Source: Candidatus Parcubacteria bacterium
GTDB taxonomy: Bacteria; Patescibacteriota; Minisyncoccia; Minisyncoccales; JAGMDC01
NCBI GenBank assembly: GCA_023130975.1
Contig: JAGMAD010000005.1
Span: forward strand, 22,933 to 86,932
Reading direction: 5' to 3'
Length of the DNA: 64,000 bases
Shown: piece by piece, positions 9,792-57,035 of the stretch
Numbering within the stretch: position 1 is the stretch's first letter
Layout of the letters: every line of letters begins with the position of its first letter
The notes under the pieces: model-generated
Databases searched by the model: none
What the model was told of the DNA's origin: nothing
Seen by the model: only the letters and a program-made list of their open reading frames with translations
Translations under genes and position numbers: made by a program

Positions 9792-9830
9792 AGTTTAATT
9801 TTAACTTTTTTAAAGCAAATAAAAAAGCCC

Positions 9831-10220
9831 AAGCAGGCAATAAGCCGAATTCTGTCTTGGGCAATCATTTATCTATCGCCGAGCACTCAAAATTTTGAGT
9901 GCTCGGTCAAGCGAACTACTTTTTCACTTCGGCAAATCCGGAGATTGCCGAAATGCTTGTTCTTGCACCCGATAAGGATTTAGCCGTTTCACTTCTTCGA
10001 TTAACTCGAAGAACTCGCCAAGCACTCAGCAAACTGAGTGCTTGGCGCCTTAGCTCTTTCGAGCTTCGGCGTCTCTGTTCGCACCTCTAACCTTGCGGTC
10101 GACGGCTGTTAGCCGCTATCTTTTTAGACCAAGCACATAAATTATGTGCTTAAAATGGGTGTTCGGACTTTCCTCTAAGCACTCAGCGAACTGAATGCTC
10201 AGCGATTGCCTTGCCTACTT
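9831..10220 (-). ncRNA. rnpB: RNase P RNA (bacterial type A)
   Basis: The minus strand contains GAGGAAAGUCCGAACACC (CR-I) and ACAGAAUUCGGCUUA (CR-V). P1 is AAGUAGGCAA/UUGCCUGCUU and P2 is GGCAAUC/GAUUGCC. About 390 nt, followed by CUUGGGCUUUUUU. Confidence 0.9.
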
Positions 10221-10268
10221 AGACTGTTTCTATAGTAACAAAATAAAATCAACCTGTCAATGCTTTTA

Positions 10269-10739: not shown

Positions 10740-11978
10740 CTAAACATTTTTAAAGTATTTAATTAAACATTTTTTAAATTTTTCTAAATTCTCGTTTTTC
10801 ACAGTAAAGCCGGCAGCCGGCGCGTGGCCGCCAAAAGTCATTAAAAGCTTTTGACAGCTTTTCATTGCTTTTACAGCATCCATATTAGAAGGCACTCGCA
10901 CTGCGCCCATACTGTTTTCCTTTCTCTTTTTAAAAATAAAAGTGGGCTTTTTATGCTTATTGCAGACCCTCGAAGCTACCGAACCAATTAAGACATTAGG
11001 CCAGCCAATATCCCCTTCAAAAATTACAGAATCAGAGTTATCTAAAATTCTCTCTTCTACCTGTTCTACAATGTCTTTTATCTGAGAACGTCTTGCTTCA
11101 TTTCTGTCCAATAACTTTTCTACTAAATTTTTTGCTTTTCCCTTGTTCTGGCAAGTAAGAAGCAAGTATGCCTCGGTCAAATGGTCTTTAATTTCGCTTA
11201 CATTCAAAGCAGAAACAATTTTTTGAACTTTTTCTTTTTCTTTTAATCCGCCAGCTGGCGAATTTAGAGAGTTAATTTCAAAAAAAACTTTTAATCCTAT
11301 CCGTTGAGTGTCTTTTAGGGACTGAAGCCCTTTTTCAATATATGTTTTGTTATCTTCTTCTCGAACCATCATATCAGCGATAGTAGCTAAAGCCGCTAAT
11401 TCTAAAAAACTATTATCTAATGAATTGCTCATTTTGTCTTTAAGCATAACCTTCGTCAATTCATAAACAAGACCAGCAGCGGCAAATTCTTTAAAGGGAT
11501 AGTTATCGTCTTTTTGTTTTGGGTCAACGATAATTGAGGCATCTGGCAAAGAATCAATTACCTGATGATGGTCAATAATAATTGTTTCCAAACCAAGTTT
11601 TTTGGCTATTTTAACTTCTTCAAAGTTAGTGATACCCAAATCTAAGGCAATAAGCAGAGCTGGCGAGAGATGCTTTAAAAAAGCCAAGGCATTTTTATTG
11701 ATTCCATAACCTTCATTTTCTCGGTCCACAAAATAAACCTCCACACCATAACGAGGACTGACTTCGTCAGTTTTAGTGCCAAAGGCACTATGTCCTCGTT
11801 TGGTGTGGGGGTAAACAGCAGCAATATTCCCTTCCAAATTCTCAATAGCTTCCTCTAAAATAACTACTGAAGCAGTGCCGTCTAAATCAGCATCACCATA
11901 GATAATGATTTTCTCTTTATTTTTGATTGCCTTTAGAATTCTATTAGCTGCTTTTTTTAAATTTTTGATTTCAGGCAT
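10740..11978 (-). CDS. DHH-family phosphoesterase, RecJ-like
   Basis: IIIYGDADLDGTASVVILEE, the DHH motif (IIIDHHQV) and the DHHA1-like C-terminus GGHAPAAG. It contains a 26-codon insertion, listed as a mobile_element at 11738-11811. Confidence 0.8.
   Translation of the reverse strand: MPEIKNLKKAANRILKAIKNKEKIIIYGDADLDGTASVVILEEAIENLEGNIAAVYPHTKRGHSAFGTKTDEVSPRYGVEVYFVDRENEGYGINKNALAFLKHLSPALLIALDLGITNFEEVKIAKKLGLETIIIDHHQVIDSLPDASIIVDPKQKDDNYPFKEFAAAGLVYELTKVMLKDKMSNSLDNSFLELAALATIADMMVREEDNKTYIEKGLQSLKDTQRIGLKVFFEINSLNSPAGGLKEKEKVQKIVSALNVSEIKDHLTEAYLLLTCQNKGKAKNLVEKLLDRNEARRSQIKDIVEQVEERILDNSDSVIFEGDIGWPNVLIGSVASRVCNKHKKPTFIFKKRKENSMGAVRVPSNMDAVKAMKSCQKLLMTFGGHAPAAGFTVKNENLEKFKKCLIKYFKNV
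11738..11811. mobile_element. 74-nt palindromic MITE-like element inserted in frame in the recJ-like gene
   Basis: The terminal inverted repeats are CCTCCACACCATAACGAGGAC and GTCCTCGTTTGGTGTGGGGG. TAAA direct repeats flank it at 11734-11737 and 11812-11815. Element plus duplication is 78 nt. Confidence 0.7.
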
Positions 11979-11990
11979 ATTACCCCTTGA

Positions 11991-12073
11991 CCCCCCACCA
12001 CTTTGTCAAAAGTCAAAATAAATGAGGAAATATTTAGGAAATTTTAGATGGCGTTTTACAAAGTGGTGGGGGG
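11991..12073. mobile_element. 83-nt palindromic MITE-like element, intergenic copy
   Basis: Perfect 16-bp terminal inverted repeats CCCCCCACCACTTTGT (11991-12006) and ACAAAGTGGTGGGGGG (12058-12073). TTGA direct repeats flank it at 11987-11990 and 12074-12077. Confidence 0.7.
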
Positions 12074-12101
12074 TTGATAAGATTTTATGGTTGTGTATAA
12101 T
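12074..12101 (+). promoter_or_regulatory. Candidate plus-strand promoter TTGATA-N16-TATAAT with no downstream ORF
   Basis: TTGATA at 12074-12079 and TATAAT at 12096-12101. The -35 box overlaps the right flanking TTGA of the element. Confidence 0.4.
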
Positions 12102-12330
12102 GAAAATTGCCATGATAGGCACAATAGGAAAGTTTTGAAAACGCGTGAACCGGGACCATAAAAGTTGCCCATTTGGTAACTTTTGGAAAGGTAGCAATAG
12201 GAATGAGATAGGAGCAACTATCAAATGTATTTTTTAGGAGCCGTTTGGCTCAATGCAGATAGCATCCTATCCTTCTCCTATTGTCATATAGCACACTTAC
12301 AATTTCATAGATTTCATTTCTCACGATCAT

Positions 12331-12367
12331 AAGGTATTGCCATATTAGGAATACCTTCCTTTTTTTA
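12331..12367 (+). terminator. Candidate plus-strand intrinsic terminator
   Basis: AAGGTATT (12331-12338), a loop, AATACCTT (12350-12357), then CCTTTTTTT. It is oriented for the plus strand although both neighbouring genes are on the minus strand. Confidence 0.4.
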
Positions 12368-12390
12368 TTATAATGAGCGTCTCCTAAAAA

Positions 12391-13512
12391 TTACTTTCCC
12401 GAGCATATTGCTTCTATTCCTACCAACTTTTCATCAACTAAATAATCAAGCATTGCGCCGCCGCCAGTGGAAACAAAACTAAATTTTTTAATTAAACCAA
12501 CCCTGGTTAAAAACTCAATCGTCTCCCCTCCTCCAACTACTGAAAAAGCTTTACCTTTAACAACAGCTTTGGCAATCTCTCTTGTAGCTTTAGAAAATCT
12601 CTTTTCTTCAGTTTTTCCCAATGGACCATTCCAAAAAATGGTTTTTGCTTTTTTAATTTTTTCAATAAATATTTTTATTGTTTTTTCTCCAATATCACCG
12701 CTATCCACCCAGTCCACAGGAAGAATAATTTTTTCTGGATATTTAAATTTTACATTCTGCCATTCTATTTCTTTAGGTATCAGGCCGCCAATTAAAACAT
12801 AATCAGTTGTTTCAGAAAGTTTGTTAATCAATTTTACTTTTGTTTTTACTTTGGCGCCGCCAATTATTGCTATTAAAGGTTTTTTTGGCTTAAACATTAA
12901 TTGTTTCAATGTCTCTATTTCTTTTTCTACTGAAAAACCAATACCTGAAGGCAAAAACTTTGGCAGACCAGTAATTGAGGCATGGGAACGATGGCAAACA
13001 GCAAAAGCATCATTAATATAAACCCCGCACCTTTTGTCGGCTAACTTTCTTAATTTAGGTGCTGAAGGTACCTTGCTGACAAAAGGTGCGGGGTAAATAT
13101 CGCCTGTTAATTTTGCCAAGTCCTTCGCAAATTTTTCATTATTTTCTTTCTCCCCTTTGTAAAATCTTAAATTCTCCAAAACAACAATATCTCCTGATTC
13201 CATTTTTTCTATTTCCTTTTCAACCTTATCGCCAATACAATCCGAAAAAAACCTAACTTTTTTATTTAATAATTCTCCTAATCTATTGGCAATTGGTCTT
13301 AAGCTAAACTTTTCTTCTCTTTTTTCCGGCCTGCCGAGATGACTAATTATAATAATCTTAGCTTGATTTTTTGCCAAATATTCAATGCTGGGAATAGCTG
13401 CTTTAATCCGAAAATCATCTAAAATATCCCCTTGTTTTGACAAAGGGACATTAAAATCAGTTCTTAATAAAACTCTTTTTCCTTGAAAATCAAAATCTTT
13501 TAATGTCTTCAT
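12391..13512 (-). CDS. pgk: Phosphoglycerate kinase, carrying a 25-codon element-derived insertion
   Basis: KRVLLRTDFNVP, IIISHLGRP, INDAFAVCHRSHAS, GGAKVKTK and STGGGAMLDYL. The ATG overlaps the stop of the upstream ATPase gene (ATGA). Confidence 0.93.
   Translation of the reverse strand: MKTLKDFDFQGKRVLLRTDFNVPLSKQGDILDDFRIKAAIPSIEYLAKNQAKIIIISHLGRPEKREEKFSLRPIANRLGELLNKKVRFFSDCIGDKVEKEIEKMESGDIVVLENLRFYKGEKENNEKFAKDLAKLTGDIYPAPFVSKVPSAPKLRKLADKRCGVYINDAFAVCHRSHASITGLPKFLPSGIGFSVEKEIETLKQLMFKPKKPLIAIIGGAKVKTKVKLINKLSETTDYVLIGGLIPKEIEWQNVKFKYPEKIILPVDWVDSGDIGEKTIKIFIEKIKKAKTIFWNGPLGKTEEKRFSKATREIAKAVVKGKAFSVVGGGETIEFLTRVGLIKKFSFVSTGGGAMLDYLVDEKLVGIEAICSGK
13023..13093. mobile_element. 71-nt palindromic MITE-like element inserted in frame in pgk
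   Basis: Perfect 16-bp terminal inverted repeats CCCCGCACCTTTTGTC (13023-13038) and GACAAAAGGTGCGGGG (13078-13093). TAAA flanks lie at 13019-13022 and 13094-13097. The total of 75 nt equals 25 codons. Confidence 0.75.
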
Positions 13513-15101
13513 TTTTCGTCTTCTTCTTTTTTCAGGGACTCTTCTAAAACTTCTTTTAATTCTTTAGTATTGATTTCTTTTCTTTCGGGCTTTTCTCTTT
13601 TTTCTTGAACTTTTCTATGAGGAGAGAAAAAAATAGGTTCTTTTTCCACTGCTTCATTCAAGGACATACTCGGTTCTTTTTTATCTTCTGTTTTAGTTAT
13701 TTTTTCAAGGCAGGACTTGCAATAAACAGGCCTTACTCCATCCGGCTTAAAAGGAACTTTTATCAACCTACCGCATTCCTGGCATTGAGCATCATAAAGA
13801 ACTGGCAAGGGCCTGACTGGTTCAGCTTCTTTTATTGGTTCTGACCACTGGCTAATTTTTTCTTCAACGATTTTTCTTTCTGTACCGTATTTGGCCCGCG
13901 ATTTTTCAATAATCTCTTCTCTGTTTGAATCTTCTGGCTTTGATGCAGGCAACAGGGTTTCAGCAGAAAATGGCCTGCTGGCTACACCGTCAATCATTAG
14001 CTTTAGATAGATGTTATATTTGGCTAAATTAACTAAATCAGAGGCAAAAAATTCTGGCATAAATTCTCTTTCTAAAAATTGGGCGTCCTCTGCTCCTATT
14101 CGAAAAGAAGCAATAGTGCCTACGTTGCCAAAAACAGCATCTCTGACTGTTTCTTCCATTTGAGCAATATATTGATGAGCCAGAATTAAGGACAAGCGGT
14201 ATTTTCTGGCTTCAGATAAGATATTGACAAAGGACTCGGTGGCAAAGTTTTGAAATTCGTCTACATAAAGGAAAAAATCATTTCTTTTCTCTTCCGGCAT
14301 ATCCACTCTGGACATTGCTGCTAACTGTATTCTGGTAATTAAAAGGGCGCCCAACAAGCGAGAAGCATCCTCCCCTATTCTCCCTTTAGACAAGTTCAAT
14401 ATTAAAATCTTTCCTTTATCCATCACCTCTCTCATATCAATAGATGATTCAACCTGGCCAATAATGTTTCTAATTAAGGGCGCGGAAATAAACTGGCCAA
14501 TTTTGTTTTGAATAGCTGCTGTGGCCTCTATCTCATATCTTTGGGTATACCTGGCAAATTCTTGAACCCAAAATGCTTTTACTACCGGGTCAGTTACTTT
14601 CTCTATCACCTCTTTGCGGTAATCAGTATCAGCCAGCATTCGATTGATGCCCAAAAGAGTGGAACCAGGATATTCTAAAAGAGCTAAAATACAGTTATTT
14701 AAAATATATTCCATTCTGGCTGACCAAACATCAGGCCAAATCTTTTTAAAGACACCCATTAAGCCGCCAGCCACTAAATGCCGTTTTTCAAGAGCTACTT
14801 CTTCCATAATATTAAAAGCAATGGGATAATCTAAGTCAGCGGGATTGAAATAAACAACATCTTTAATTCTATCCTTGGGCACAAAATCAAGAAGATTTTC
14901 TGCTGCCTCGCCATGAGGGTCAACAAAACCTATTCCCTTACCGTCTCTGACGTCTTGGATAGCCATATTCTCCAGCATAGCTGTTTTGCCCATACCAGTT
15001 TTTCCAACTACATAAAGATGCCGACGTCTATCATCGGTCTTGATGCCAAATTTTTTTCTGATATTACGAAAGTTTGTTTCTCCGAAAAAATTAATGTCCA
15101 T
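13509..15101 (-). CDS. VirD4/TraD-like (type IV coupling protein family) P-loop ATPase with a C-terminal CxxC...CxxC zinc ribbon
   Basis: Walker A VVGKTGMGKTAML, Walker B FFLYVDEFQNF, AHQYIAQM, and the C-terminus CQECGRLIKVPFKPDGVRPVYCKSC. I chose the ATG at 15101 because the ORF-track start at 15110 is TTG. Confidence 0.7.
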   Translation of the reverse strand: MDINFFGETNFRNIRKKFGIKTDDRRRHLYVVGKTGMGKTAMLENMAIQDVRDGKGIGFVDPHGEAAENLLDFVPKDRIKDVVYFNPADLDYPIAFNIMEEVALEKRHLVAGGLMGVFKKIWPDVWSARMEYILNNCILALLEYPGSTLLGINRMLADTDYRKEVIEKVTDPVVKAFWVQEFARYTQRYEIEATAAIQNKIGQFISAPLIRNIIGQVESSIDMREVMDKGKILILNLSKGRIGEDASRLLGALLITRIQLAAMSRVDMPEEKRNDFFLYVDEFQNFATESFVNILSEARKYRLSLILAHQYIAQMEETVRDAVFGNVGTIASFRIGAEDAQFLEREFMPEFFASDLVNLAKYNIYLKLMIDGVASRPFSAETLLPASKPEDSNREEIIEKSRAKYGTERKIVEEKISQWSEPIKEAEPVRPLPVLYDAQCQECGRLIKVPFKPDGVRPVYCKSCLEKITKTEDKKEPSMSLNEAVEKEPIFFSPHRKVQEKREKPERKEINTKELKEVLEESLKKEEDEK

Positions 15102-27228: not shown

Positions 27229-27296
27229 CCCCGCACCTTTTCTAGACAGCTTTGAATTTTTGAAGCCTTTGGCTTCTGTCCAGAAAAGGTGCGGGG
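27229..27296. mobile_element. 68-nt palindromic element copy forming a 23-bp stem with a T-run upstream of secA
   Basis: AACCCCGCACCTTTTCTAGACAG ... CTGTCCAGAAAAGGTGCGGGGTT. The terminal 13 nt CCCCGCACCTTTT are identical to the pgk copy. On the minus strand it is followed by GTTTTTTTTAT. Confidence 0.7.
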
Positions 27297-30530: not shown

Positions 30531-31691
30531 ATGTATTTTGTTCATCCCCAAATAAATTTAAACAAAAAAAATTTTCAGAAAATATTCTCTTCTTTTTTCC
30601 GAACTCCTGATTCAAAGGGCTTAAACAAAAAGCTCTCTTCTTTCTTTCCGGAAAAGCAGATTGTTTTTACTGACATGGGCAGGTCGGCTTTTCAAATCAT
30701 AATTGAAAAAATGAATTTAAGAAACAGCCAGATGCTTTTTCCTGCTTACATCTGCGATATCTTCCTGCCCATTTTTAAGAAATATAATATTAAACCGATT
30801 TTCTTAGATGCTGATATTAAGACCTTTAATTTAAAAATTGAAGAAATGGAAAAGAAAACCAGTCCCCAAACCAAATCTATTTTTGTTTCCCATATTTACG
30901 GCCTGCCTAATAACATAAATAAGATATTGTTTATCGCTAAAAAACATAATTTAAAAGTCATTGAGGACTGCGCCCATAGTTTTGGGATAAAAAAGGGAAA
31001 AAGATATTTAGGAAATTTTGGTGAGGCCTCTTTGTTCAGTTTATACAAATTTCTTCCGGTTGCTAGAGGAGGAATGCTGGTCTGTCCCAAGAACTGGAAA
31101 ATAGATTTAGAAGAAACATCTTTCAGTCCCCGTGATTTTATTTCTTTCTTAAACCATTTTCCTTTTTGGGCTTTTCTGTTTAAAAAATTTGGCGGCTTCG
31201 TTTCTCCAAAAATAATAAGAAAAGAAAAGCTGTCTAAGACCGGAGGAATTAACAAGGTCTCTTTGAATCTATTTTCTTCTCTCTTTGAAGAACACCAGAA
31301 AAATTTAAAAAAAAGAATAAATCTTGGCTTGTTTTTTCAAAAAGAACTTAAAAATTTAGGCTTTGAGACCCGGGAAGGAAAAGAGAATGGTTTTTGCTAT
31401 CTTTCTGTTTTAATGCCAAAAAAATTGAGAGAAAAAAGAGATGATTTTATAAAAGGACTGAGAAAAGAAGGTGTCCATTGTACAAGAATGTGGTATAGTC
31501 CTATAGTTCTTAATCCGGAAGCGCAAAAAAAATACAAATTAGACCTAAATGAATTTCCAAATACCATAGAGATAAGCCAAAGAGTTATTAATTTTCCTTT
31601 GCAGGATTTCTTTCAGAAAAAAGACATAAAAGAAATGATTGGAAAAATAAAGAAAGTGCTTAATTCACTTGACCCCGTAGTGAAAATTTGA
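30531..31691 (+). CDS. DegT/DnrJ/EryC1/StrS-family protein (aminotransferase-like)
   Basis: PAYICDIFLPIFKKYNIKPIFLDAD, VSHIYGLP, VIEDCAHSFG and SLYKFLPVARGG. The last codons and the stop lie inside a palindromic element. Confidence 0.6.
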   Translation: MYFVHPQINLNKKNFQKIFSSFFRTPDSKGLNKKLSSFFPEKQIVFTDMGRSAFQIIIEKMNLRNSQMLFPAYICDIFLPIFKKYNIKPIFLDADIKTFNLKIEEMEKKTSPQTKSIFVSHIYGLPNNINKILFIAKKHNLKVIEDCAHSFGIKKGKRYLGNFGEASLFSLYKFLPVARGGMLVCPKNWKIDLEETSFSPRDFISFLNHFPFWAFLFKKFGGFVSPKIIRKEKLSKTGGINKVSLNLFSSLFEEHQKNLKKRINLGLFFQKELKNLGFETREGKENGFCYLSVLMPKKLREKRDDFIKGLRKEGVHCTRMWYSPIVLNPEAQKKYKLDLNEFPNTIEISQRVINFPLQDFFQKKDIKEMIGKIKKVLNSLDPVVKI

Positions 31692-31748
31692 CAAAGTTTT
31701 CTTTTGGAAAACTCATATCGCAAAGCGAGTCAAATTTCTACTACGGGG
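31673..31748. mobile_element. 76-nt palindromic MITE-like element overlapping the 3' end of the DegT-like gene
   Basis: The arms are CCCCGTAGTGAAAATTTGAC and GTCAAATTTCTACTACGGGG. TTGA flanks lie at 31669-31672 and 31749-31752. The stop codon at 31689-31691 lies inside the element. Confidence 0.65.
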
Positions 31749-31834
31749 TTGACACAAGTTCTTGAATTTGCTAACATTAGATTAGTGAGTGTGAGATCCT
31801 ATGAGAAATCAAAGGAACTCCATTCTTTGTCGGC

Positions 31835-31875
31835 AAAAGACCCCGGTTTCCGGGGTCTTTTGCTTTCTCTTTTTT
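31835..31875. terminator. Bidirectional rho-independent terminator between convergent genes
   Basis: AAAAGACCCCG-gtttc-CGGGGTCTTTT followed by GCTTTCTCTTTTTT. Confidence 0.75.
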
Positions 31876-31902: not shown

Positions 31903-33783
31903 TCAATTAAGCAAAGAATATGTTGGGACAAGTTCTTTTAGAATGCTTTTTATTTCTTTCTGGTCAAATTTTTTGATTGCTTTTTCTAGCCTTCTTAAAC
32001 TTTCGTTTATTTTCTCTTTATCTGCTTCTGAAAGTTTTGCCATAAAAATTTTTTCATTTTGAGTAGCAATAGTTCCTTCTTCAGCGGTTAAAATTTCTTC
32101 AAAAAGTTTTTCTCCTGGTCTAATACCTGTAAAAACAATGGGAATATCTTTATCCGGTTCATGACCGGAAAGACGAATTAATTCTTTTGCTAAGTCCACA
32201 ATCTTTATTGGCTTCCCCATATCTAAAACAAATACCTCTCCACCTCTTCCCATAGCTCCGGCTTGCATTACTAAAAGACAGGCCTCAGAAGTAACCATAA
32301 AATATCTTTTCATCTCGGAGTGGGTAATTTCTATCGGACCTCCTCTTTTTATTTGTTCTCTAAAAATAGGTATTACGCTTCCCCGGCTGTTTAAAACATT
32401 ACCAAATCTCACAGAAATAAATTTTGTAGAATTTTCTTGATTTAGAGACTGACAAAGCATCTCTCCCACTCTTTTTGTTGCACCCATTATTGAACTTGGG
32501 TTCACTGATTTGTCAGTAGAAATAAAAATAAATTTTTCTACATTATGCTTTAGGGCAACATCAGCAATAGTTTTTGTCCCAAAAATATTATTTTTCACTG
32601 CCTCATCCGGTTGACTCTCCATTAAGGGAACGTGCTTATAAGCAGCAGCGTGAAATATTATCTCTGGCTTAAATTTTTCAAAGATCTGTATTATTTTTTG
32701 TTCATCTCTGATGTCAGCGACAATAAAGGAAAAATTTAGTGTTGGAAATTTGTTTTTAATTTCTTCTGAAATATTAAAAATCCCTGTTTCATCTTGATCT
32801 AAGAGCAAAAGAAGATATGGTTCAAATTTAGCTATTTGACGACAAAGTTCAGAACCAATAGAACCAGCAGCACCAGTAATTAAAACACGTCTTCCTTGAA
32901 TAAAACTTGTAATAGCTGCTTTATTCAAAGATACTTGTTTTCTTCCTAATAAATCCTCCATTTGAACATTTCTTAAATCTCTAATAGAAACTTTTCCATT
33001 AATTATTTCTGTAATTGAAGGAATAATCTTAATATTTTTAAGACCTGACATTCTTCCAACTTCTACTGCTTTCTTTATAATACTTGAATCTGCTGAAGGT
33101 AAAGCGATAATTATTCCTTTAATATCTTGCTTTTTCACTATATCCGGAATATCTTTAACCTTTCCTAAAACACGGACACCGTGAATTAAATTTCCCTGTT
33201 TTAATTCATTATCATCAATAAAACCAACGGGCTCATAAGGAGCGTCAAAAGAACTCTGAATGCTTCTTAAAATTTGTTCACCGGCATCACCTGCCCCGAC
33301 AATTAAAGTTTTCTCTTTGCCTCTTGTTTCTTTTTTTTGAAAAAGATAAAAATAGATTCTTTTAGAAAAACGAGCAGCTCCGCAGAATATAAAAATTAAA
33401 AAATAACTAATAAAAAGAACAGAACGGGGAAAACCGCTAAAAACCGTGTAATCCTTTAAAACAAAATAAAAAGCTGTTAAGAGTAAAAAACTCAAGATTG
33501 TAGCCTTGAATAAAGAAATTAACTCTTCCAAACTCACATAAGACCAACTGAAATAATAAAGCTTAAAAAAGTAAAAAATAGGAATAGTAATTATTAAAGC
33601 TAAAATGATAATTCCTCCAATGTTTAAAAAATAACAGTCAGGTATTTGTCCCTCAAACCTAATCAAAAAAGCCAACCAAACTGAAAAAGAAATCAGTATA
33701 ATATCACTAACTAAAAAGAAAATCATTCGCTTTTTCGGCGTCCGCTCCATTAATTTTTTTAGCAAGAATTTAAAATCAGGCAT
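31903..33783 (-). CDS. Membrane-bound NDP-sugar 4,6-dehydratase (CapD/PglF/WbpM family polysaccharide biosynthesis protein)
   Basis: 626 aa with four N-terminal TM segments, two Rossmann motifs (IVGAGDAGEQ and ITGAAGSIGSEL) and a Polysacc_synt_2-like core. Confidence 0.88.
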   Translation of the reverse strand: MPDFKFLLKKLMERTPKKRMIFFLVSDIILISFSVWLAFLIRFEGQIPDCYFLNIGGIIILALIITIPIFYFFKLYYFSWSYVSLEELISLFKATILSFLLLTAFYFVLKDYTVFSGFPRSVLFISYFLIFIFCGAARFSKRIYFYLFQKKETRGKEKTLIVGAGDAGEQILRSIQSSFDAPYEPVGFIDDNELKQGNLIHGVRVLGKVKDIPDIVKKQDIKGIIIALPSADSSIIKKAVEVGRMSGLKNIKIIPSITEIINGKVSIRDLRNVQMEDLLGRKQVSLNKAAITSFIQGRRVLITGAAGSIGSELCRQIAKFEPYLLLLLDQDETGIFNISEEIKNKFPTLNFSFIVADIRDEQKIIQIFEKFKPEIIFHAAAYKHVPLMESQPDEAVKNNIFGTKTIADVALKHNVEKFIFISTDKSVNPSSIMGATKRVGEMLCQSLNQENSTKFISVRFGNVLNSRGSVIPIFREQIKRGGPIEITHSEMKRYFMVTSEACLLVMQAGAMGRGGEVFVLDMGKPIKIVDLAKELIRLSGHEPDKDIPIVFTGIRPGEKLFEEILTAEEGTIATQNEKIFMAKLSEADKEKINESLRRLEKAIKKFDQKEIKSILKELVPTYSLLN

Positions 33784-53646: not shown

Positions 53647-54587
53647 AACTTATTCCTGAACCACTCCACTGTCTCTTTCAATCCCCTATCTAAATTATAT
53701 TTCGGCTGACAGCCAAGCTCTTTTTTTGCTTTTTTAAAATCTAAACAGCTTCTTTTCTGCTCACCAGGTTTTTCAGGAATATGAATCTCTTTACAATTTA
53801 AATCAGCCAACTTTCTAATTTTTCTAAAAATAGTATTAATACTGGTTTCATTTGCTGTCCCAATATTAAAAACCCCGATTTTGTTTTTCTTCAAAGCCAA
53901 TATATTCGCTTCAACCACATCATTAATATAAACAAAATCCCGGGTTTGTTTTCCATCACCGTTTATTGTTGTTTCTTTACTATTTAGCATTTTATCGCAG
54001 AAAATGGCAATTACTCCTGCCTCTCCTTTTGAATTTTGTCTGGGTCCATAAACATTTGACAAACGCAAAGATACATAAGACAGACCAAAAACTTTATAAT
54101 AATAATTTAAGTATTTATCAAAAACCAATTTTTCAATCCCATATGGCGAAACAGGCATTTCAGGATATGTTTCTGGAGTAGGAATAATATCAGCGTCGCC
54201 ATAAATGGCACCGCCAGTAGAAGCAAAGATTATTTTAGAAGCGAATCTATGCGAACGATTAGGCGAAAGAACGCGAATAAAATTCTGAATTATATTTAAA
54301 GAACCGAGAATATTAATTTTGGCATCTTCAATTGGATCCTCAACTGATTTTCTTAAATCAATTTGAGCCGCTAAATGAAAAACTGTTTCTGGTTTTTCTT
54401 TTTTAAAAACATCGGAAATTTTAGGACTCCTGATGTCCAATTTATAAAATTTGGCTTTAGGATTCAAGTTTTTTTTAGTTCCGGTAGATAAATTATCAAT
54501 CACCACCACTTTATGATTTTCTTTGATTAATCTATCTACTAAATGACTTCCGATAAAACCAGCTCCCCCAGTGACTAATATCTTCAT
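53637..54587 (-). CDS. NAD-dependent NDP-sugar epimerase (GalE-like extended SDR)
   Basis: MKILVTGGAGFIGSHLVDRL, and SPYGIEK (the YxxxK motif). Confidence 0.88.
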   Translation of the reverse strand: MKILVTGGAGFIGSHLVDRLIKENHKVVVIDNLSTGTKKNLNPKAKFYKLDIRSPKISDVFKKEKPETVFHLAAQIDLRKSVEDPIEDAKINILGSLNIIQNFIRVLSPNRSHRFASKIIFASTGGAIYGDADIIPTPETYPEMPVSPYGIEKLVFDKYLNYYYKVFGLSYVSLRLSNVYGPRQNSKGEAGVIAIFCDKMLNSKETTINGDGKQTRDFVYINDVVEANILALKKNKIGVFNIGTANETSINTIFRKIRKLADLNCKEIHIPEKPGEQKRSCLDFKKAKKELGCQPKYNLDRGLKETVEWFRNKLAS

Positions 54588-54662: not shown

Positions 54663-57035
54663 ATGGAAAACAATATCGTTGAAAATAAAATAAAATGGGT
54701 TTATCTTCTGGGCTTTTTTTTAATTTTGGCCTTACCGCTTTTGAATCTACCGCCCTGGTTCTCGCCGCCTGACTGGGGGAAAACCATTGTTTTTAGGATT
54801 ATTCTATCTCTAATGATTTTTGTTTTTCTATGGCAAGTCCTTTTCCAGAAATTAAATGATAATTTATCATTGATCATTAAAAATATATTAAATAAGCAAA
54901 GTAAGGTTTTTTTAAGTTTCTGGCTCTTGATTGCTTTCTTAGGAGTTTACTTCTTGGCTACCCTATTTTCTCAAGACCCATATTTCAGCTTTTGGGGATC
55001 TCCTTACCGTGCCGGTGGATTTCTTAATTTCGCTTTCTGTATAATTTTTGCTATTTTAGCTTTTTTAATTCTCCGAAAATCTGACTGGCAAAAAATCTGG
55101 GATTTTAGTATAATTATTGGAATTTTTGTCTCATTTATTGCTATCTTTCAGCAACTCGGTCTTTTTAGTAAGGTAGTTATTCCTTTTTCCGGTAGAGCGC
55201 CTTCTACTATCGGCGGACCAATATTTTTGGCAATTTATCTTTTGCTTTTATTTTTTCCTATCTTATTTTTTGGTATTAGAGAAAAAAATCTTGTTAAGAA
55301 GTTTTTTTATTTTTTTGCTCTTTTATTATTTTTTTATGTTATCTTAAATACTGGAAGCCGAGCCGCTTATTTTGGATTATTAATTGGAATCTTTTATTTT
55401 GTTCTTTTCTACCCTGTTAAATTCCACTTTGCGGCACCCAGCCTTTTACAGAAAGGCGGGGTATTTAACAGGGTGGACCCCCACACCAAAAAGCTTTTTT
55501 TAGTCAAAATCTTTTTTGGAATCCTTTTGGTTTTAGGAATTTTGGGAGTTTATTATTTGAATGCTGATTACCAAGTCCCTCAATCTTTTCAAGAAAACAA
55601 GATTTTTAAAACAGTCAATTCAAGATTATCTATCAGTTTAGCCATAAAAGATCCTCGTTTCTCCAGTTGGGAAATTGCTTTCAGGGCAATGAAAAAAAAA
55701 CCGATTTTGGGTTATGGGCCGGAAAATTTTTCAATTGGTTTTGATAAGCATTATGACCCTTCTTTGCCATACATTGATCCGGATTGGGGCAGTTGGTATG
55801 ACCGTGCCCATAATTTTATTTTTGATATTGGGGTTACTGTAGGAATTTTAGGTCTGATTATTTACCTTTCCCTTTTTGCAGTTTTATTCTCTGGATTACA
55901 AAAACTAAAAAAAATTAAACCAGAAAAAATAATAATATATCATGGAATTCAAGCTGCTTTCTTAGCTTATTTGGCAGCTAATTTCTTTAGTTTTGATACT
56001 TTTTCAACCTACTTAATATCGTTTTTAATAATTGCTTATAGTTTAACTTTAATAAATCAATCAGAAAAAAAGCAAAATGAAATCATTAAACCAAAAATTA
56101 GAAGTGTCCAAAAACTCACGATCGTGAAAATTTGGACACTTTTAAAAAAATATAAAAAAGCAATTATTGTTATTTTATTTTTATTCTTAATCTGGTTTAT
56201 CTGGGCTTGTAATATCAAACCTTTTTGGATTAACAAAGAAATCCGTTCTACTAAAACTCAATCTCAAATTGGGAATTATCAACAAGGCCTGAAACAATTA
56301 GAAAGCGTCTTGGATTCTCACACTTATTTAGACAGTTATTTAAGATTAAATTATGTTGAGCTTATTAGCCAAAACCTAGAAAAAACTCCGCCGGCTTTTC
56401 AGGGAATTTTAGTGGAAAAAGCAATCAATGCTTTAAAGGAAAATACTGAAATCAGACCTTATTATACCAGAAACTGGTTATTGCTGGGAAATTATACCAA
56501 TGTTTTGATTGAGAAAGGAAAAAAAAACCTAAGAGGAGAAGCATATTACTATTTTGAAAAAGCTCTTCAATTAAGCCCTAAGCACTTAGAAATTTTCATT
56601 GGTCTGGCAAAAACCGATTTATTAACCAATGATTATTTAGGAGCAAAAAATAATGCCCAAAAATGCATCAATTTAAATTCAAAAGTTGGAGAATGCTGGT
56701 GGTTAATGGCTATAACTAATATCTATTTGAATAACATTGAAGAAGCCCAGGGAAACATAGAAGCAGCAAGAAAAGCAATATATCCTGTTGGCTCAAAATC
56801 CTCTACTGCTCAACTTATAAATGCCTATAATTACATCAAAAACTATGAAGAAATAGTTAAAATTTATCAAACATTAATTTTGCAAGAACCAAACAATGCT
56901 CAATATCATTTCTCCTTAGCAGTTTATTATAAAGAACTGGGTAATAATGAAAAAGCAAAAAAAGAAGCTCTAAGGGCTTTAGAGCTAATGCCAGAAGCAA
57001 AGAAACAAATAGAAGAGTTTTTAAAAACTCTTTAA
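54663..57035 (+). CDS. O-antigen-ligase-like (Wzy_C domain) polytopic membrane protein fused to C-terminal TPR repeats
   Basis: NTGSRAAYFGLLIG and YDRAHNFIFDIGVTVGILGL show the Wzy_C pattern. The C-terminal ~250 aa has TPR-like repeats (YYFEKALQLSP, AVYYKELGNNEKAKKEALRALEL). Confidence 0.75.
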   Translation: MENNIVENKIKWVYLLGFFLILALPLLNLPPWFSPPDWGKTIVFRIILSLMIFVFLWQVLFQKLNDNLSLIIKNILNKQSKVFLSFWLLIAFLGVYFLATLFSQDPYFSFWGSPYRAGGFLNFAFCIIFAILAFLILRKSDWQKIWDFSIIIGIFVSFIAIFQQLGLFSKVVIPFSGRAPSTIGGPIFLAIYLLLLFFPILFFGIREKNLVKKFFYFFALLLFFYVILNTGSRAAYFGLLIGIFYFVLFYPVKFHFAAPSLLQKGGVFNRVDPHTKKLFLVKIFFGILLVLGILGVYYLNADYQVPQSFQENKIFKTVNSRLSISLAIKDPRFSSWEIAFRAMKKKPILGYGPENFSIGFDKHYDPSLPYIDPDWGSWYDRAHNFIFDIGVTVGILGLIIYLSLFAVLFSGLQKLKKIKPEKIIIYHGIQAAFLAYLAANFFSFDTFSTYLISFLIIAYSLTLINQSEKKQNEIIKPKIRSVQKLTIVKIWTLLKKYKKAIIVILFLFLIWFIWACNIKPFWINKEIRSTKTQSQIGNYQQGLKQLESVLDSHTYLDSYLRLNYVELISQNLEKTPPAFQGILVEKAINALKENTEIRPYYTRNWLLLGNYTNVLIEKGKKNLRGEAYYYFEKALQLSPKHLEIFIGLAKTDLLTNDYLGAKNNAQKCINLNSKVGECWWLMAITNIYLNNIEEAQGNIEAARKAIYPVGSKSSTAQLINAYNYIKNYEEIVKIYQTLILQEPNNAQYHFSLAVYYKELGNNEKAKKEALRALELMPEAKKQIEEFLKTL
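55411..55474. repeat. 64-nt nested palindrome in frame inside the Wzy_C gene
   Basis: The outer 12-bp inverted repeat is ACCCTGTTAAAT and ATTTAACAGGGT. The inner one is GCCTTTT/GAAAGGC. It is followed by CCCCCACACCAAA, which is identical to the recJ element terminus. Confidence 0.6.

Follow-up and report, generated by a model that had tools for sequence, protein, structure and literature searches.

A hairpin-forming miniature element very probably inserted at a pre-existing promoter in a Candidatus Parcubacteria genome, and its possible mobilization by a minimal GIY-YIG nuclease

Results

An 83-nt palindrome between the recJ-like and PGK genes

We analyzed a 64,000-nt stretch of DNA from Candidatus Parcubacteria bacterium (GenBank assembly GCA_023130975.1, contig JAGMAD010000005.1, positions 22,933 to 86,932; hereafter the window; G+C content about 33%), an organism whose nearest relatives by phosphoglycerate kinase (PGK) are Nealsonbacteria metagenome-assembled genomes (MAGs), with attention to a hairpin-forming palindrome of 83 nt in the intergenic region between a recJ-like gene and the PGK gene. 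The recJ-like DHH/DHHA1 gene lies at 10740-11978 on the minus strand (its orthologues carry PF01368 and PF02272), the PGK gene at 12391-13512, and the palindromic element at 11991-12073. The encoded PGK is 100% identical to a protein listed at NCBI under Candidatus Parcubacteria bacterium. A first-pass annotation of the window had described an 83-nt element with perfect 16-nt inverted termini and a TTGA/TTGA duplication, and the sequence agrees. The left arm (CCCCCCACCACTTTGT, 11991-12006) is the perfect complement of the right arm (ACAAAGTGGTGGGGGG, 12058-12073), so that the two pair at 16/16 nt; between them is an A+T-rich interior of 51 nt (12007-12057) with no open reading frame (ORF) and no similarity to other copies. 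The left TTGA (11987-11990) is identical to the right one (12074-12077), which also forms the first four bases of a -35 hexamer. Across the window the 16-nt arm is found at two places only, one on each strand (shuffle control: mean 0.23 matches with three mismatches allowed), and the predicted RNA fold of the element is strong (-32.7 kcal/mol, z = -6.5, matched by 0/200 shuffles). The element stands upstream of the recJ-like gene, as had been annotated, but 12 nt rather than 13 nt separate its arm from the ATG at 11978, and it is four bases from the AAGGGG ribosome-binding site of that gene.

The element is a MITE (a miniature transposable element with inverted repeats) by definition. It is well under 500 bp and has no ORF of its own, its termini are complementary at 16/16 positions, it is flanked by a fixed-length target duplication (TTGA/TTGA), and it belongs to a dispersed family with 5 to 7 copies in the window and matches in at least 119 genomic stretches elsewhere. 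Longer coding elements of 281-327 nt, each with a GIY-YIG gene, share the termini; none from this organism is present within the window.

A promoter older than the insertion

The right TTGA begins a sigma-70-type promoter sequence on the plus strand, TTGATA-16-TATAAT (12074-12101; -35 hexamer at 12074-12079, -10 hexamer at 12096-12101; 11/12 consensus matches), which is the best promoter-like site within 11500-13600. The first-pass annotation had noticed this pairing of TTGATA with a perfect TATAAT 16 nt away, on the strand opposite to the recJ-like gene, and had proposed that the insertion created the -35 box and may so have made or modified an outward-facing promoter. The pairing is real, but its proposed origin is contradicted by relatives that lack the element: L203, L204 and L002/L003 have TTGACA-agattttatRgttRtg-TATAAT between their PGK and recJ-like genes, on the strand opposite to both genes and with a spacer almost base-for-base equal to that of the window, the -35 hexamer being TTGACA in the relatives and TTGATA in the window. 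Because three element-free relatives keep this near-identical TTGACA-16-TATAAT, the putative promoter is ancestral and older than the insertion. TTGA is found on both sides of the element and therefore comes from the target sequence, its duplication having rebuilt the hexamer. We consider it very probable that a mobile hairpin inserted here at a pre-existing promoter, and the sequence upstream of the -35 hexamer has been wholly replaced by the G+C-rich 83-nt palindrome, an exchange that may have modified the promoter.

The promoter faces a conserved unannotated transcription unit, a candidate small RNA, at 12108-12368 on the plus strand (predicted start at 12108, hairpin at 12331-12357, T-run at 12360-12366), with a fold z of -4.1. 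The 3' part and the terminator hairpin of this unit are kept in three relatives (L203, L204 and L002), while the middle varies and the unit measures 260-400 nt. The terminator stems change in compensatory fashion: AAGGTATT/AATACCTT in the window, GGGTAATG/CATTACCC in L203 and, with one mismatch, GGGCAATG/CATCGCCC in L002. A search of 12108-12368 against Rfam matched no family, and in L001, the closest relative, the entire unit has been lost. Since both the -35 and the -10 boxes are intact, the unit in the window is probably still expressed.

On the other side of the element, the window has 8 nt (ATTACCCC) from the recJ-like ATG to the insertion and then the element, versus a 45-nt spacer up to the -35 hexamer in the relatives, and the site is evidently remodelled on the recJ-like side. 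GTGGGGG beside TTGACA in L002 was considered as the remnant of a terminus and rejected, because L203 has AAAGGGC there and the sequence is probably ancestral. There is also a weak minus-strand promoter-like site at 12141-12112; if transcription started there, or if read-through from PGK occurred, the hairpin would lie in the 5' leader of the recJ-like gene.

Other copies in the window

The first-pass annotation listed further copies at 13023, 11738, 27229 and 31673, and all four are genuine (14-16/16 arm matches; strong hairpins, z from -7.2 to -12). The high density that it had remarked on, five copies in 64 kb, is confirmed as well, and a relaxed scan (at least 12/16 arm matches; 30 shuffled windows gave 0-2 weak matches each) adds a degenerate copy and a solo terminus.

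Two of these copies are in frame inside genes. The copy in the PGK gene (element 13023-13093, 71 nt; span 13019-13097 with TAAA duplications on both sides) adds 25 residues directly ahead of the conserved YINDAF strand, and the copy in the recJ-like gene (element 11738-11811, 74 nt; TAAA duplications at 11734-11737 and 11812-11815; -43.5 kcal/mol) adds 26 residues. At the PGK site, L002 and L203 have the empty sequence GCGATATTTATATTAATGA with a single TTTA, and the window and L001 have TTTA-element-TTTA, an exact 4-bp duplication. The PGK insert is present in the window and in only one relative (protein P0002, on L001 and L104; PGK 78% identical), and orthologues of 69-73% identity are without it; the 26-residue recJ-like insert is restricted to the window and is absent from all three orthologues examined, one of them 91% identical. 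Because the orthologues supply exact empty sites, both copies are evidently true insertions with target-site duplications, that in PGK being old and that in the recJ-like gene comparatively recent.

The PGK insert is 88% protein-identical between lineages whose PGKs are 78% identical, and its six nucleotide changes comprise three synonymous and three nonsynonymous ones, all of them outside the pair of 19-nt stems. The simplest reading is that the in-gene copies are translated, because neither breaks the reading frame or contains a stop codon and because the protein sequence of the PGK insert is conserved; an example of the peptides encoded (PGK / recJ-like) is PAPFVSKVPSAPK. In a structure prediction of PGK with its insert, which was built from an alignment of 19 sequences only, residues 137-194 have pLDDT below 50.

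The remaining two copies named by the first-pass annotation differ in context. The intergenic copy at 27229-27296 (68 nt; -49.6 kcal/mol, z = -12), of the CCCCGCACC subfamily, lies 38 nt upstream of an 843-aa ORF and is without a clean duplication; the promoter scan called nothing beside it, and by eye there is a weak TTGTTT-16-TAAAAT. The copy at 31673-31748 (76 nt; span 31669-31752, TTGA/TTGA duplications) is at the 3' end of ORF 30531-31691 and gives this ORF its stop codon. Its right flank carries a promoter-like TTGACA-17-TAACAT (extended TG, 31749-31777). About 55 nt after TAACAT there is a 15-bp G+C-rich terminator (31832-31864), which outlines a possible plus-strand unit of ~85 nt (31749-31864), convergent with a gene ending at 31903.

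The degenerate copy (55412-55473, CCCTGTTAAATTCC...GGTATTTAACAGGG) is in frame in ORF 54663-57035 on the plus strand and is directly followed, in the same ORF, by the solo CCCCCACACC terminus (55479-55495). The elements appear to decay into ordinary coding sequence. The solo terminus encodes DPHTKK, which resembles PHTKRG of the recJ-like copy. An inverted repeat at 53869-53947 was rejected as a copy, being ordinary coding sequence of an epimerase-like gene. Small G+C hairpins whose loops are TTCG or CAAAG (CGAA or CTTTG on the other strand) are found inside several copies, at 11751-11795 in the window and in the interiors of elements in L020, L085 and L111. DNA mini-hairpins of the GCGAAGC type are very stable, and the internal hairpins give the elements a Y-shaped fold, possibly a hint of a single-stranded DNA intermediate.

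Distribution and target sites of the family

We scanned species-representative genomes for the terminus shared by two sister copies of the window (CCCCGCACCTTT, 35-65 nt, AAAGGTGCGGGG), which yielded the at least 119 stretches referred to above; the concern that the copies might be unique to this contig is thereby removed. Within the Candidate Phyla Radiation (CPR) the matches are in Saccharibacteria, Falkowbacteria, Peribacteria, Portnoybacteria, Doudnabacteria, Nealsonbacteria and Tagabacteria, and beyond it in Omnitrophota, Planctomycetia (Planctomycetota), Elusimicrobia (Elusimicrobiota), Latescibacterota, Nitrospira and other MAGs. The following statistics rest on 124 distinct copies among the matches listed.

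The termini start with CCCC-N-CAC. Perfect 4-bp direct repeats flank 54/124 copies (44%), compared with 0/124 at a control offset, and 52 of the 54 duplications are of the form T-N-N-A (TTTA 14, TTGA 12, TCAA 11, TAAA 6); in a logo of the flanks, information is confined to the four positions adjoining each end. The interiors of the copies are mutually unrelated. Stem positions 14-19 have near-maximal entropy and are paired in 42-73% of copies versus 25-44% expected; because these inner stems vary and yet stay complementary, formation of a hairpin or cruciform itself seems to matter. Only 12/113 copies (about 11%) are inside spanning ORFs, the remainder being intergenic although the loci are about 88% coding.

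Association with -35 hexamers

In 23/25 copies with TTGA on a flank, TTGAxx is followed at 16-18 nt by a -10-like hexamer, and 14 of the -35 hexamers are exactly TTGACA. When only perfect duplications are considered, a correctly oriented -10 hexamer is present in 21/22 copies (TCAA: 11/11 facing left; TTGA: 10/11 facing right), and one in the wrong orientation in 4/22. In the background, 31% of the other intergenic TTGAC sites in the loci and 10% of those inside ORFs have such a hexamer (Fisher's exact test: P = 2e-9). Copies with TTTA or TAAA duplications showed no association with promoters, and both TTGA copies of the window (11991 and 31673) fit the -35 rule. The spacers and -10 boxes beside the copies all differ and therefore are host sequence rather than cargo. 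Insertion may truly prefer promoter DNA, or it may prefer TTGAC in combination with selection; we give neither explanation more weight. The excess over intergenic TTGAC sites argues that retention in noncoding DNA is insufficient by itself to produce the link.

Full-length elements and their GIY-YIG gene

The full-length elements that share these termini are mostly 281-327 nt and carry one gene for a GIY-YIG protein of 83-100 aa (UPF0213/Slx1-like), a typical element having roughly 290 bases and a protein of 85 residues, with the ATG 17-50 nt from the left end. In L039, L049, L024 and L067, termini ~300 nt apart enclose a single GIY-YIG ORF (PF01541, E = 1e-14 to 1e-16); in L039, 58 nt separate an element of this kind from a hairpin without a gene, and the two have their first 13 nt (CCCCGCACCTTTT) in common. 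A profile of these four element-encoded proteins retrieved 80 metagenomic loci, and of 70 GIY-YIG genes whose flanks were long enough, 63 stand between inverted repeats, which start with CCCC-N-CAC in nearly every case. The terminus of the 83-nt element itself (CCCCCACCACTTT...AAAGTGGTGGGGG) brackets GIY-YIG genes in L137, L154, L155 and L182 and, as a variant, in L178.

In 1.12 Mb of loci, neither another kind of ORF nor a longer element was found between such termini. Termini pairs 421-6000 nt apart and unpaired termini were inspected in the same 1.12 Mb; every such pair consists of two separate small elements, and no partner of transposase size was seen.

Tyr5, Tyr16, Arg26, His30 and Glu62 (Y5, Y16, R26, H30, E62) are invariant in the protein alignment, and we equate them, from the fold, with the catalytic residues of GIY-YIG enzymes. 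Among solved structures, the UPF0213 proteins BH0048 and EF2693 (E = 1e-8) come closest, followed by SLX1, a structure-specific endonuclease. The element proteins carry PF01541 alone and are annotated as "GIY-YIG nuclease family protein", as "putative endonuclease" or, wrongly, as "excinuclease ABC subunit C". Relatives are numerous among 50%-identity cluster representatives (9,605 at E up to 0.001; 869 at E up to 1e-10). Many of them are 210-650 residues long with GIY-YIG at the N terminus (e.g., P0257, P0268, P0291 and P0338), which may represent genuine fusions or, alternatively, read-through across the right end of an element into host genes.

Discussion

How the element may have moved

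Our preferred reading is that a non-autonomous, MITE-type hairpin inserted into the TTGA of a pre-existing -35 hexamer and was mobilized by a GIY-YIG nuclease supplied in trans. The nuclease would recognize the terminal motif as a hairpin or cruciform and cut so as to set the element in motion; host repair would fill in a break at T-N-N-A with a 4-nt stagger, and the resulting TTGA duplication would rebuild the -35 hexamer of the small plus-strand unit. The kinship with Slx1/UPF0213 and the precedent of the Ssn nucleases, which is discussed below, make movement driven by such a nuclease plausible. We lean towards this composite of a mobile hairpin at an ancestral promoter and a GIY-YIG nuclease as its mobilizer, and on the nuclease step taken separately our judgement is evenly balanced. 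That the 281-327-nt units are autonomous transposons, in which one 85-residue GIY-YIG nuclease recognizes its own ends, homes to the TTGA of -35 hexamers as a safe site, restored by the duplication, and sheds gene-less hairpins across phyla, is a tentative extension about which we are somewhat more doubtful than hopeful. If it were true, these would be the smallest transposons known by far, and a new class of enzyme would be involved in DNA transposition with target duplications.

Several observations weigh against the preferred reading. We know of no strand-transfer or joining activity in GIY-YIG enzymes, and those characterized leave 3' overhangs of 1-2 nt and not 4-nt staggers. A clean 4-bp duplication flanks only 17/56 full-length elements and 0/4 of those with the exact terminus of the 83-nt copy. 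The CCCCTCAC subfamily (L125, L126, L129, L136, L141, L150, L153, L164 and L165) has 7-bp repeats rather than 4-bp ones and sits at GGGCCnnTAGCTC-like sequences resembling tRNA 5' ends, which suggests a different target rule. In the window, a tblastn search found no GIY-YIG gene. The interior of the 83-nt copy has no similarity to full-length GIY-YIG elements past the termini (about 13 nt), and the copy is thereby ruled out as an internal-deletion derivative of those with the same terminus. No clean empty site was found for it, the relatives having an unrelated spacer of 45 nt in its place, and it showed no polymorphism for presence or absence: over 3.1 kb, two further assemblies from this population are identical.

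Alternative explanations

The hairpins could be ordinary MITEs moved by a DDE transposase (IS1380/piggyBac-like or IS5-like), with the GIY-YIG genes as passengers or as an unrelated addiction module. DDE transposition is classically recognized by inverted repeats together with a duplication of fixed length, and the IS1380/piggyBac-like and IS5-like groups also pair C-rich ends with 4-bp duplications; piggyBac and IS1380 in particular have CC(C) ends and 4-bp T...A duplications (TTAA for piggyBac), a resemblance only, since no DDE transposase is found here and the elements are ten times smaller. The lack of a known joining activity in GIY-YIG enzymes and the absence of a clean duplication from many full-length copies would both fit a DDE origin. 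We regard it as unlikely nonetheless: the only ORFs between such termini in the 1.12 Mb are GIY-YIG genes, pairs more than 420 nt apart resolve into separate elements, bracketing of 63/70 GIY-YIG genes is far too regular for passengers, and inner stems that are variable but complementary point to a structural requirement rather than to a protein-binding sequence. Similarly improbable, in our view, is that the hairpins are not, or not mainly, mobile at present and are recognition sites of a domesticated nuclease that acts on single-stranded DNA, either incoming or being replicated, as has been proposed for NTS and SsnA of Neisseria (PMC11893778), their spread being ancient. The absence of polymorphism between assemblies is what such sites would show, as is the PGK copy shared by lineages with 78%-identical PGKs and unchanged in both 19-nt stems. 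The recJ-like copy, however, is missing from a 91%-identical orthologue and is recent on that scale, 44% of copies have perfect duplications, and the window lacks the dRS3 core of the NTS motif; moreover, domestication would be compatible with a mobile origin.

The two further alternatives concern the locus itself, and we give both very little credence. One, that the -35 box, and with it a new outward promoter, came with the insertion or arose from it, as the first-pass annotation had it, draws on TTGA adjoining the element and completing TTGATA 16 nt from TATAAT. Three relatives without the element nevertheless have a near-identical TTGACA promoter, TTGA is duplicated on both sides and so stems from the target, and the spacers and -10 boxes beside other copies are all different, which together make a new promoter highly improbable. 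A regulatory RNA hairpin that evolved locally (a 5' untranslated structure, an attenuator or a terminator of the recJ-like gene) would likewise account for a hairpin this strong so close upstream of the ribosome-binding site of that gene, and the weak promoter-like site at 12141-12112 would place it in the 5' untranslated region. Such an origin is scarcely credible given that elements of the same kind lie within two coding sequences whose orthologues have exact empty sites, that the element has direct-repeat flanks and that its stem is followed by no T-run, and Rfam searches of the element and the intergenic region returned only generic microRNA-precursor hairpins, far below threshold.

Comparison with known systems

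The closest described system is Ssn/NTS. Ssn proteins (CDD family cd10448) are single-domain GIY-YIG nucleases that bind and cut single-stranded DNA beside hairpin repeats flanking their genes, and their authors remarked that NTS-ssnA-NTS resembles an insertion sequence (Chenal et al. 2025, Nat Commun, PMC11893778). In both systems a very small single-domain GIY-YIG gene is flanked by hairpin repeats that also have many scattered genomic copies, and the spacing of conserved residues is alike (Y5/Y16/E62 here versus the mutated residues Y6/Y17/E64 in Ssn; PMC11893778). The two differ in architecture: each Ssn repeat is a hairpin of its own, 20-50 nt long with an oriented, conserved tag (CGTCATTCCCGCG...GCGGGAAT), whereas here one pair of inverted repeats with the motif CCCC-N-CAC spans the whole element. 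The dRS3 core (ATTCCC-N8-GGGAAT) of the CGTC-tagged NTS/SRM consensus has 0 matches in the window with one mismatch allowed. The T-N-N-A 4-bp duplications, gene-less derivatives, -35 preference and in-frame copies found here are unreported for Ssn, and the present proteins are UPF0213/Slx1-like by structure match.

The Correia elements of Neisseria are likewise short, have inverted termini and a target duplication, and occur in many copies beside genes near promoters. They duplicate TA, carry promoter-like hexamers in their own ends and have conserved interiors, whereas in the present family the hexamer of the promoter is target sequence, interiors show no relation between copies, and the presumed partner is of another class than the DDE transposases. 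Like the present elements, the palindromic elements of Rickettsia (RPEs), reportedly described by Ogata and colleagues in 2000, have inserted in frame into essential genes of a bacterium with a small genome and are carried there as additional peptide (here 25 residues of PGK and 26 of the recJ-like protein). RPEs are about 100-150 bp, and we know of no duplication rule or partner gene established for them; they have no sequence relationship to the present family, of which only about 11% of copies are inside ORFs. REPIN/RAYT and IS200/IS605 systems with their palindromic derivatives (such as PATE), which PMC11893778 also discusses, resemble it in having hairpin-dependent repeats, one small nuclease-like gene flanked by them and a likely single-stranded intermediate. 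Those systems use HUH/Y1 transposases and insert beside a fixed tetra- or pentanucleotide with no target duplication. The elements here have a 4-bp duplication of variable sequence and enclose only a GIY-YIG ORF, with no Y1/HUH gene, and IS200/IS605, REPIN and RAYT are excluded because of the duplication and the protein class.

A MITE family with a minimal GIY-YIG nuclease as presumed mobility protein and with insertions that mark -35 hexamers is apparently undescribed; we found no description of it in the literature, in searches that included the terminal motif and covered the literature without most subscription journals, so that an earlier description is possible. If the link with the nuclease holds, very compact DNA mobility (about 290 bp and one 85-residue protein) would operate in several poorly known phyla, with a nuclease of a class close to Ssn, which is of current biotechnological interest. 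Copies with a TTGA duplication flag promoters at about 95% reliability and might be used as natural landmarks for sigma-70-type promoters in lineages without cultures, such as CPR, whose promoters have hardly been mapped so far; at the present locus, the promoter points to the conserved unannotated small transcription unit. The in-frame copies would be one source of the lineage-specific inserts of 20-40 residues in CPR proteins, and they alert annotators to the fact that inserts of this kind are mobile DNA.

Other palindromes and inserts

Different inserts of 10-40 residues are present, at several other positions, in other CPR PGKs (P0008, P0009, P0045, P0054, P0055, P0067, P0073, P0077 and P0120), an example being a NPKSQIPNKSKIPN-like segment after HLGRP. 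Lineage-specific inserts are therefore common in this essential enzyme, and some of them may be other mobile elements. In the window, the gene for RNase P RNA (9826-10221, minus strand), which is barely above the Rfam threshold (105 bits versus 100), contains GCCAAGCACTCAG-CAAA-CTGAGTGCTTGGC, a hairpin with 13 perfect base pairs, together with a half-copy related to it (10015-10048 and 10177-10205). Near-identical hairpins (GAGCACTCAAC..GTTGAGTGCTC) are found downstream of PGK in L001, L104 and L203, and the RNase P hairpins may represent a second family of small palindromic repeats.

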